This document shows positions 46,085 to 46,408 of a stretch of DNA of 64,000 nucleotides, piece after piece. How positions within the stretch are numbered: the first letter of the stretch is position 1; the number at the start of each line of letters is the position of its first letter. Source of the DNA: an uncultured Gemmatimonadales bacterium (GTDB lineage Bacteria > Gemmatimonadota > Gemmatimonadetes > Longimicrobiales > RSA9); NCBI GenBank assembly GCA_963798085.1, contig CAWCRS010000009.1:31525-95524 (forward strand). The letters are read 5' to 3'. Position numbers and translations under genes: made by a program. The notes below the pieces were generated by a model. That model did not search any database. It worked only from the letters and a program-made list of their open reading frames with translations, and was not told where the DNA came from.

Positions 46085-46120
46085 GAACCGGCCGCCCGTC
46101 TTGCGCCGGGCGGCCGGTTC
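46085..46120 (-). terminator. 14-bp perfect hairpin after the leader ORF (candidate attenuator)
   Basis: GAACCGGCCGCCCG-8 nt-CGGGCGGCCGGTTC followed on the minus strand by TCGTTTC, 43 nt before panB. Confidence 0.6.
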
Positions 46121-46139
46121 GTGGGTCCTGCGCTCGCAC

Positions 46140-46253
46140 TCAGCTGCGTCCAGCGCCATCCACTCTCCGGTCGCTCGGCGACACGGCGTGACACATGTAC
46201 ATGGTCATCGCCATGTACCTGTGTCCGAGAGTGAGCACCACCCGCCAGCTCAT
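46140..46253 (-). CDS. Putative Met-rich leader peptide, 37 aa
   Basis: Manual translation MSWRVVLTLGHRYMAMTMYMCHAVSPSDRRVDGAGRS*; four Met codons in seven; alternative start at 46214. Confidence 0.6.
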   Translation of the reverse strand: MSWRVVLTLGHRYMAMTMYMCHAVSPSDRRVDGAGRS

Positions 46254-46271
46254 GCGCGATCTCGATCCCCC

Positions 46272-46305
46272 AAAACAAAAAAAGCCCGCGAGCGCAGCCG
46301 CGGGC
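46272..46305 (-). terminator. Intrinsic terminator, riboswitch expression platform
   Basis: GCCCGCG-GCTGCGCT-CGCGGGC followed by TTTTTTTGTTTT directly after the aptamer. Confidence 0.85.
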
Positions 46306-46364
46306 GGTCGCTTTTTAGCATTTGTTTAACGTGGCTGCAATATGCGGCAAATCGCCACGACCGA
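46305..46364 (-). ncRNA. SAM-II (SAM_alpha-type) riboswitch aptamer
   Basis: CGGUCGUGGCGAUUUGCCGCAUAUUGCAGCCACGUUAAACAAAUGCUAAAAAGCGACCG: P1 CGUGGC/GCCACG, GAUUU, UUGCAG, UUAAA and GCUAAA hallmarks. Confidence 0.85.
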
Positions 46365-46379
46365 ATTGTTGTGAGCGGG

Positions 46380-46408
46380 ATGATGCAACGTCGCAGGCGC
46401 CGTGTCAA
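46380..46408 (-). promoter_or_regulatory. sigma70 promoter for the riboswitch leader
   Basis: TTGACA (46408-46403)-17 bp-CATCAT (46385-46380). Confidence 0.65.

Follow-up and report, generated by a model that had tools for sequence, protein, structure and literature searches.

A SAM-II riboswitch and a probable Met/Cys leader-peptide attenuator in series before a panB-paralog operon of the Gemmatimonadetes

The DNA analysed here, called the window throughout, is a stretch of 64,000 nucleotides (nt) from an uncultured Gemmatimonadales bacterium (assembly GCA_963798085.1, contig CAWCRS010000009.1, positions 31,525 to 95,524 of the forward strand). On its minus strand lies an operon with a panB paralog, a ThrC-like gene and a ThiS-like gene. 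The leader of this operon carries, in the order of transcription, a promoter, an aptamer of the SAM-II type for S-adenosylmethionine (SAM) with a terminator named T1, a short open reading frame (ORF) with a run of Met and Cys codons, a hairpin named 1:2 and a terminator-like hairpin named T2. An initial annotation, made from the letters of this stretch, had described a TTGACA-17-CATCAT promoter, a SAM-II aptamer, a GC hairpin with a long U tract, a 37-codon ORF with M-A-M-T-M-Y-M-C and a perfect 14-base-pair (bp) hairpin 43 nt before panB. All five elements were found again in the present analysis. Below, the anatomy of the leader is followed by its conservation, the in-frame enrichment of its Met codons, the covariation of its hairpins and the modularity of its two layers. 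All coordinates are those of the window and all features lie on the minus strand.

The promoter is of the sigma-70 type, with TTGACA at 46408..46403 and CATCAT at 46385..46380 separated by 17 nt, and it matches at 10 of 12 positions. The promoter scan found one such site when 0.1 was expected from shuffles. A TTGACA-like box is also found in relatives, at the same distance upstream of the aptamer. The aptamer at 46359..46311 matched the Rfam model RF00521 (SAM_alpha), which the initial annotation had proposed as a check, with 36.5 bits, the gathering score being 36, and with an E of 1.4e-4 in the whole window. The match was local and spanned model positions 10-62 of 79. With RF01726 the window aptamer scored 28.7 bits, under the cut-off of 44. 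In the 6.2-Mb genome it was the sole RF00521 match, with 150 of the 816 first-look candidates scored, and in relatives the same aptamer type reached scores of up to 52.6 bits. Helix P1 (46359..46354 with 46335..46330) closes a U-rich loop L1 (46353..46336), as is characteristic of SAM-II, and is followed by a 3' tail (46329..46311).

Relatives were searched with RF00521, first in 31 close relatives and then in 73 genomes of the family, which gave 69 loci. The public records of these relatives are titled Gemmatimonadetes or similar. The unpublished genomes G016, G020, G069, G071 and G136 supplied the loci L010, L013, L019, L032, L038, L052, L089 and L223-L224. They were excluded from the alignments A2 and A3, from the covariance model R1 and from the codon-mix summary, and were included in the counts on 38 and 36 loci, in the swap tests, in the R1 search of the order and in the frame and geometry counts. 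Two aptamer types were present among the 69 loci, class A, to which the window belongs, and class B. The class B loci (L014-L016, L020, L043, L049, L051, L053-L065, L068 and L069) lie before metK and have a terminator, no leader ORF, a pseudoknot that is 2 bp longer and a loop-terminator complementarity of their own. The RF00521 search found no class B copy in the genome of the window. The genes downstream of the SAM-II loci are methionine and SAM genes, namely those for MetY, MetX, Hom, aspartate kinase and ThrC-like proteins, and metK.

Pairing in the aptamer was counted in 55 published class A and class B aptamers, the window included. The six P1 pairs were paired in 100% of the cells, and one of them varied as UG:32, GC:22 and CG:1. 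In the H-type pseudoknot, where the GCUAAAG tail pairs with the 3' part of the P1 loop, 94.3% of the cells were paired, in a count that is favoured by a pair list drawn by eye from the same sequences. Compensatory changes between the classes were observed at pair 43-64 (CG:33, UA:22) and at pair 45-62 (CG:40, AU:6). We infer that the window aptamer binds SAM.

T1 (46274..46305) was called by the terminator scan and consists of a stem-loop at 46305..46284 followed by TTTTTTTGTT. Its 5' arm GCGGC (46301..46297) is complementary over 5 bp to GCCGC in the middle of L1 (46348..46344). The same complementarity between the middle of the loop and the T1 arm was present in both classes with different sequences, GCCGCCG/CGGCGGC in class A and UCGGCAGC/GCUGCCGA in class B. 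When the L1 loops and T1 arms of 67 loci, six of them from unpublished genomes, were swapped, the loops fitted their own arm better than the arms of others and 0 of 5000 permutations were as good. The mean loop-arm energy within a class was −14.55 kcal/mol for A/A and −14.29 kcal/mol for B/B, compared to −8.34 kcal/mol for an A loop with a B arm and −9.82 kcal/mol for a B loop with an A arm. Since the loops fit their own arms, the sequences indicate that layer 1 is a transcriptional OFF switch in which the L1 loop and the T1 arm would form the antiterminator.

Layer 2 follows with the leader ORF at 46253..46140, which has 37 codons and a stop and reads MSWRVVLTLGHRYMAMTMYMCHAVSPSDRRVDGAGRS. 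Its run ATG GCG ATG ACC ATG TAC ATG TGT (M-A-M-T-M-Y-M-C) is located at 46214..46191 and has Met or Cys at five of eight codons. In dinucleotide shuffles of the window region, 1 of 200 yielded an ORF with at least five Met/Cys codons in eight. The whole genome was scanned on both strands for small ORFs with at least four Met/Cys codons in eight and a downstream terminator-like hairpin. Four were found, the window locus among them, and the same scan gave no second convincing Met/Cys leader in this genome. Translation might instead start at one of two in-frame GTG codons, at 46241 and 46238.

The Met run is palindromic. In the minimum-energy fold, GUACAUGG and CCAUGUAC (46196..46217) pair as a hairpin that is nested within a longer CACUCUC/GAGAGUG helix, and most relatives lack such extra structure. 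A contig from a public soil DNA run covers 46099..46364 and matches the window but for one difference at 46219, where C is replaced by G on the plus strand at a depth below 5. This changes leader codon 12 from AGG to ACG, outside the Met run. A search of sequencing runs for this stretch listed no RNA run that contains it.

Hairpin 1:2 (46167..46186) begins 4 nt past the last Cys codon, with CCG-U-GUCGC as region 1 and GCGAC-CGG as region 2. T2 (46078..46120) comprises regions 3 and 4, which form a perfect 14-bp stem (46120..46107 with 46098..46085) with an 8-nt loop and the tail TCTCGTTTC. The T2 hairpin ends 43 nt before the panB ATG at 46042. The second layer of the window, 185 nt in length, folds with a z of −5.59, and 0 of 200 shuffles folded as well.

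Conservation of the Met-codon cluster and covariation in the hairpins were the tests that the initial annotation had set for its reading, and both were found. Class A comprised 38 loci with at least 300 nt downstream. In 36 of these the Met/Cys run was kept and the order was the same: aptamer, T1, ORF with the run, hairpin inside the ORF, stop codon, T2 and first gene. The 36 tandem loci span 29 genomes and 18 genera, and when the unpublished genomes are set aside the layout was present in 33 of 34 loci, in 27 genomes and 16 genera. T1 was flagged by a simple scan in 28 of the 38 class A loci; in the other ten the conserved 5' arm was present and the T-run criterion failed. A T2 with a T run after the ORF was observed at 36 of 36 class A leader loci in our own scan. 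In the relatives it is a canonical terminator with a GC-rich stem of 9-15 bp and then 5-9 T. The maximum of Met plus Cys per eight codons in small ORFs had a median of 5 in class A, compared to 1 when the reverse complement was read and 0.5 for 30 SAM-II loci of other types. At 29 of the 38 loci 0 of 200 shuffles reached as high a count, and at 34 of the 38 at most 2 did so (27 and 31 of 34 without the unpublished genomes). A chance origin of the window feature was considered and is ruled out by this conservation.

The enrichment of ATG follows the reading frame. The 36 leader ORFs have 142 ATG triplets in frame, as against 4 and 9 in the two remaining frames. From locus to locus the codons that separate the Met codons vary, and the Met/Cys positions persist. 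The leader peptides are 23-56 residues long and outside the run their sequence is not conserved. The core of the hairpin was found in all three frames relative to the ORF, in 19, 5 and 5 of the 29 loci where it could be recognised. What is conserved in the hairpin is therefore the RNA, and in the run the codons.

The covariation of the hairpins was analysed in A2, an alignment of 33 published loci. Since RNAalifold on a MAFFT alignment recovered just 7 pairs of T2, the structure was written by hand from single-sequence folds. With this structure, which favours itself in the pairing counts, 84.2% of 670 cells of hairpin 1:2 and T2 were paired and 16 of the 21 pairs showed compensatory changes. 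None of 500 shuffles was as high, and every slid control was far lower. Counted from the last Met/Cys codon, region 1 lies at about +1 to +10 nt (medians) and hairpin 1:2 ends at +25 (median). The stop codon starts at +39 to +69, about 26 nt (median) past hairpin 1:2, and T2 starts at +67 to +93. With this spacing, region 1 would be covered by a ribosome that halts at the end of the run.

To describe the spread of layer 2, the covariance model R1 was made of it and searched in 151 genomes sampled from the order, three of them unpublished. R1 matched 86 of the 151 genomes (E up to 0.01), with 36 of 50, 9 of 50 and 41 of 50 by family. Among the best 30 R1 loci, RF00521 matched upstream (E up to 0.01) in 14 and not in 16, and 2 of these 16 look SAM-II-like by eye. 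In the remaining stand-alone loci layer 2 directly follows the promoter and the Met/Cys runs are kept. Thus each layer is a module of its own, and the two occur together often but not always. Sampled across the phylum, 11 of 151 genomes were matched by R1 (E up to 1e-4). Two additional families of the same class were among them, and at two of the matched loci RF00521 scored above its cut-off before the leader, with 43.8 and 37.8 bits. When R1 was applied to the genome of the window and 150 of 12556 candidates were scored, the window locus was not recovered and three weak matches turned up at other sites (E 0.22-0.75). One genome per species was also scanned with a DNA pattern, which returned at least 120 stretches. 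Of the 80 that were listed, 9 are true copies with a terminator tail and a Met/Cys ORF. These 9 come from records with Gemmatimonadetes, Gemmatimonadaceae, Gemmatimonadales or Longimicrobiales in the title, and the other 71 look like chance. Rfam searches of the window layer 2 with E up to 10 gave chance-level matches only (Thr_leader, 13.6 bits against a cut-off of 55), and on 40 related loci they returned nothing besides SAM-II.

Some loci of these searches differ from the window in what precedes layer 2. In L237, L239 and L240 a SAM-II-like sequence lies about 60-200 nt upstream of the R1 match, before T1 and a metY Met/Cys leader. It has the P1 strands GGCGG/CCGCC, a loop with GAUUUA..CUUGCUC, an inserted hairpin and the tail GAGCUAAAG. 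Rfam searches with E up to 1 gave no match to it, and it may be an unrecognised SAM-II variant. In L084, L095, L097 and L101, from another family of the order, a stand-alone metY leader lies directly 3' of a metK-like end, recognised by eye from its C-terminal motif, with a small hairpin and a promoter between them. L236 is a stand-alone leader before metY in an AT-richer genome of another family. It has the run MCMCCPC in the same architecture, so that high GC does not account for the Met/Cys run.

The mix of Met and Cys codons varies with the gene behind the leader. Downstream genes were classed by tblastn against Pfam-checked representatives and the published loci were counted; as these loci are related by descent, the following counts are not independent trials. 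Before homoserine dehydrogenase 5 of 5 runs were Cys-free, and before aspartate kinase 4 of 6; in neither group did Cys exceed Met (0/5 and 0/6). Cys-free runs were absent before MetY (0/17) and before the RimK-like ATP-grasp gene (0/12), and there Cys exceeded Met in 6 of 17 and 7 of 12 leaders, respectively. The leader of a rhodanese gene was Cys-rich, and the panB leader of the window has 4 Met and 1 Cys. Judged from these sequences, the mix found at each gene is what sensing at the level of codons would predict. On balance we favour the view that the Gemmatimonadetes have a Met/Cys "ribulon", a set of leader-peptide attenuators that would read charged Met-tRNA and Cys-tRNA, with a Met:Cys ratio tuned to each pathway step and often in series behind SAM-II. 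Leaders of aspartate kinase and homoserine dehydrogenase would use Met only, those of homocysteine synthesis a mixture, and those of the ATP-grasp/sulphur operon would be rich in Cys.

The Cys-rich leaders before the RimK-like ATP-grasp gene are L005, L007, L017, L045-L048, L081, L086, L091, L092 and L098. In L005 the ATP-grasp gene is followed by a luciferase-like monooxygenase-like gene, as judged by eye. By the codons of its leaders, this unannotated operon is apparently under cysteine/methionine control.

The first gene behind the window leader (45176..46042) belongs to the ketopantoate hydroxymethyltransferase family, with 330 bits to PF02548 and 270.9 bits to TIGR00222. The gene that the initial annotation called panB is a paralog that heads a MetM/MetO-like operon. 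A second PanB with 47% identity to the window copy is encoded elsewhere in the genome (G000:C7), and three other genomes, of which two are unpublished, have orthologs of the window PanB (72-80% identity) behind SAM-II. The second gene (43783..45179) overlaps panB by ATGA and encodes a pyridoxal-phosphate enzyme (PALP/ThrC-like) with an N-terminal Cys-rich ribbon, which is MetM-like. The third gene (43371..43646) encodes a ThiS-family protein of 91 residues that ends in GG, like the sulphur carrier MetO (PF02597, 47.5 bits, E 2.7e-12). In the outline given by a preprint (10.1101/2024.10.14.618325), MetM and MetO constitute a thiocarboxylate route from O-phosphohomoserine to homocysteine and MetM is often misannotated as threonine synthase. 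By analogy, the ThrC-like and ThiS-like pair resembles this route. In the relatives L021, L033 and L035, ThrC-like genes are the first genes behind the tandem leader. With such first genes and the MetM/MetO-like pair, methionine control of the operon makes sense. The PanB-family enzyme has no obvious role in a SAM/Met-controlled operon of this kind; as a speculation, it might supply a hydroxymethylated 2-oxoacid for the pathway.

Taken together, our results make it likely that the leader consists of two independent transcription-termination switches in series, a SAM-II riboswitch and then a Met/Cys leader-peptide attenuator. Probably, SAM and charged Met/Cys-tRNA are both sensed by the operon. 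Binding of SAM would let the pseudoknot form and T1 fold, and the transcript would end, whereas without SAM the middle of the P1 loop would pair with the 5' arm of T1 and transcription would continue. Layer 2 would act as a ribosome-mediated attenuator of the trp/his type, with Met as sensing codons and in addition Cys, which is frequent in relatives and present with one codon here. When the charged tRNA is scarce, the ribosome would stall in the run and cover region 1. Region 2, set free by this, would pair with the 5' arm of T2 (region 3), and T2 would be blocked. When Met-tRNA and Cys-tRNA are plentiful, or when there is no translation, hairpin 1:2 and T2 would form and the transcript would end. 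A full-length operon mRNA would thus require read-through at both sites, that is, low SAM together with slow decoding of Met/Cys, and the overall output would be the product of the two in an AND-like manner. We infer the ribosome stalling, the 2:3 antiterminator and the AND-like logic from the arrangement described above. The initial annotation had proposed a gate of a riboswitch plus a Met-codon attenuator. The comparison with relatives backs its parts, with the corrections that Cys codons would also belong to the sensor and that the T2 of the window has a weak U-tract.

The 2:3 antiterminator is suggested by the sequences. In A2, 82.1% of 223 cells of the 2:3 pairing were paired. Region 2 of the window fits its own T2 arm with −12.3 kcal/mol, compared to a median of −7.5 kcal/mol for the arms of other loci (rank 3 of 36). 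In equilibrium folds of transcripts that end before region 4, region 3 was paired upstream in 31 of 36 loci when unmasked, in 34 of 36 with a stall mask and in 31 of 36 with a stop-codon mask. With the stall mask its partner was mostly region 2, in about 29-30 of 36 loci as read from the fold output.

Several observations weigh against the proposed series of two switches. For the 2:3 pairing, 9, 31, 43 and 144 of 500 shuffles reached the four measures. The 2:3 duplex energy was reached by at most 10 of 200 shuffles in 9 of 36 loci and by at most 2 of 200 in 4 of 36, and for the window 113 of 200 shuffles equalled it, which gives no support, in a test that discriminates poorly in such GC-rich RNA. 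Across the loci, region 2 fitted its own T2 arm slightly better than it did other arms, with 156 of 5000 permutations as good. The masked equilibrium folds of the 36 loci failed to separate the states without a ribosome, with a stalled ribosome and with a ribosome at the stop codon. If there is any discrimination between these states, it must be kinetic, as in classical attenuators. The ATG at 46253 has a badly placed Shine-Dalgarno sequence, GGGGGA at 13-18 nt upstream. TGY triplets lack frame specificity (counts of 99, 123 and 32 in the three frames), because of ATG-T/C and the GC-rich context. L039 and L013, the latter unpublished, belong to one genus and have SAM-II, T1, a second terminator and the panB paralog without a Met/Cys run; there the attenuator ORF appears to be lost or degenerate. 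The aptamer score of the window is borderline, and 4 of 7 pseudoknot positions pair in this copy. In addition, the relatives are kin, so that the locus counts overstate their independence.

Further points of this kind concern T2 and the operon of the window and would be explained if layer 2 of the window were a weakened relic, with an inefficient T2 and control mainly by the SAM-II switch. With its tail TCTCGTTTC, the window T2 has a weak U-tract and was missed by the standard terminator scan, although a laxer scan called it. The T2 of a second panB-type leader, L052 from the unpublished genome G069, has a similarly weak U-tract. The ThrC-like gene reads in three frames, which change near 44515-44540 and 44160-44165, and corresponds to residues 1-169, 157-285 and 287-404 of a full-length relative in successive frames. 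These two frame changes may mean decay of the operon or flaws in the assembly; contigs of the public soil DNA run bridge neither site. The failure of R1 to return the window locus (150/12556 candidates scored) and the related genus that lacks the Met ORF before the same panB paralog (L039) would also fit a relic. However, the Met run, the adjacent hairpin, the stop codon and the perfect 14-bp GC-rich hairpin are all intact, region 2 suits the window's own divergent T2 arm as noted (rank 3 of 36), and the frame changes may be assembly errors. We therefore regard a relic as unlikely.

A second alternative would dispense with the ribosome. The (A/C)UG-rich run and the hairpins could be an RNA that binds a protein or a ligand and controls T2, for instance a second riboswitch or the site of an RNA-binding regulator, with the ORF being incidental. 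The partly palindromic run with its GUACAUGG/CCAUGUAC hairpin in the window would be compatible with this, as would the strong structure of layer 2 (z = −5.59), the TGY triplets that do not follow the frame and four loci at which the reverse complement reaches a count of 4. An RNA of this kind would not account for 142 ATG triplets in frame versus 13 out of frame, nor for codons that vary freely between the Met codons while the Met/Cys positions persist. Depending on the downstream gene, ATG-only, TGY-only and mixed runs interchange, a start codon is present at every locus, as is a stop between hairpin 1:2 and T2, and no Rfam family matches layer 2. This makes a ribosome-free RNA quite improbable.

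Two other alternatives are very improbable. Cys-x-Cys and Met-x-Met patterns resemble metal-binding motifs, and the ORF is conserved in position, so that it could encode a functional Met/Cys-rich micropeptide, for instance one with a metal-binding or redox function, flanked by hairpins that are ordinary terminators; yet its length (23-56 residues) and its sequence outside the run vary, a conserved GEA-like segment is the translated RNA hairpin that is found in all three frames, and the ORFs always lie in leaders of Met/Cys pathway genes with a composition that follows the pathway step. Equally, stalling could act otherwise than by termination at T2, via Rho access, mRNA stability or translation of the first gene, as the weak U-tract of the window T2 might suggest and as in mycobacteria, where polycysteine ORFs are summarised as acting on access to the ribosome-binding site (bioRxiv 10.1101/834739), but T2 in the relatives is a canonical terminator, and at the loci inspected it ends 20-70 nt before the first gene and excludes the ribosome-binding site of that gene. 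A promoter between T1 and the leader ORF is ruled out, since the gap of just about 15-45 nt from T1 to the leader start leaves no room for it.

Two switches in series thus remain the preferred reading, and the second of them can be compared to known systems. Leader-peptide attenuators are known in the enterobacterial trp, his, leu, thr, phe and ilv operons. Like those of the trp/his type, the leaders described here have a short ORF with a cluster of codons for the end product, the proposed alternative hairpins 1:2, 2:3 and 3:4, and a putative intrinsic terminator before the first gene, and the regulatory codons lie just upstream of region 1. Unlike the enterobacterial attenuators, they would sense Met and Cys with a ratio tuned gene by gene, and their stop codon lies about 26 nt (median) past hairpin 1:2. 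They have no sequence or model relation to the leader families of Rfam. The mechanism of trp attenuation is summarised in PMC4007540.

Cys codons in leader ORFs have been described for the uORFC-8-2 motif before cysS in Rhodobacterales (PMC8632094), for leaderless polycysteine ORFs in mycobacteria (bioRxiv 10.1101/834739) and for the cysS leader of Deinococcus deserti (PMC4007540). As these sources outline them, pausing at Cys codons would report charged tRNA-Cys to sulphur amino-acid genes, with several operons sharing the signal as a ribulon, and this would be similar here. Compared with the same outlines, Met is dominant here or mixed with Cys, the host phylum is different, and the ORFs have a 5' leader, often with a riboswitch in front. 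The output here would be an intrinsic terminator, whereas the mycobacterial ORFs are outlined as acting on access to the ribosome-binding site.

For the first layer, the metZ leader of Sinorhizobium meliloti is a precedent, since a SAM-II with a proposed terminator output is reported there (PMC9373788). As presented in that report, SAM-II and then a terminator precede methionine biosynthesis genes in both cases; the leaders described here differ by their Gemmatimonadetes hosts, the conserved pairing of L1 with the T1 arm and a second, putatively ribosome-dependent gate.

The combination of two sensors in one leader also has precedents. Salmonella mgtA with mgtL is a mixed leader, and Bacillus clausii metE has SAM and adenosylcobalamin riboswitches in tandem. 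Another mixed leader is that of Salmonella mgtCBR (PMC3641672), and a tandem of SAM-II and SAM-V is found in "Candidatus Pelagibacter ubique" (PMC11508383). The Salmonella leaders likewise join an RNA that senses a metabolite or ion to a short ORF that reports charged tRNA. There the signals, Mg2+/ATP and proline, are unrelated and the sensing RNA contains the ORF, whereas here two separable modules with a terminator each would respond to two forms of one end product. The tandem riboswitches likewise place two sensors in series and give a methionine gene a two-input logic; both of their sensors are aptamers, whereas the second sensor proposed here is a translating ribosome.

The initial annotation knew of no described example for methionine, and our literature searches found no methionine leader-peptide attenuator either, although Table S9 of PMC4007540, with 14 putative leader peptides of Deinococcus deserti, was not covered and might include a Met type. 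The searches also found no tandem of SAM-II and a leader peptide, no riboswitch followed by an amino-acid attenuator for the same pathway and no description of riboswitches in the Gemmatimonadetes. Methionine is thus the one biosynthetic amino acid for which we found no classical leader-peptide attenuator described, and a conserved example would fill this gap. If our reading is true, it would be the first methionine-sensing leader peptide and a counter-example to the idea that Met is unsuitable because initiation also uses Met-tRNA.

If true, the leader would also be a natural two-input gate in which an aptamer and a ribosome sense two forms of one end product. This would show that the SAM signal, which stands for the methyl-donor pool, is kept apart at one operon from the Met-tRNA/Cys-tRNA signal, which stands for the supply of translation. 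The gene-specific mix of Met and Cys would be a natural experiment in the tuning of attenuator specificity, and the series of aptamer-terminator and ORF-terminator would be a ready two-input part for synthetic biology. For the Gemmatimonadetes, the finding makes the regulation of a little-studied soil phylum directly testable, and the proposed regulon points to unannotated methionine and sulphur genes, namely the panB paralog with the MetM/MetO-like genes and the RimK-like ATP-grasp operon.

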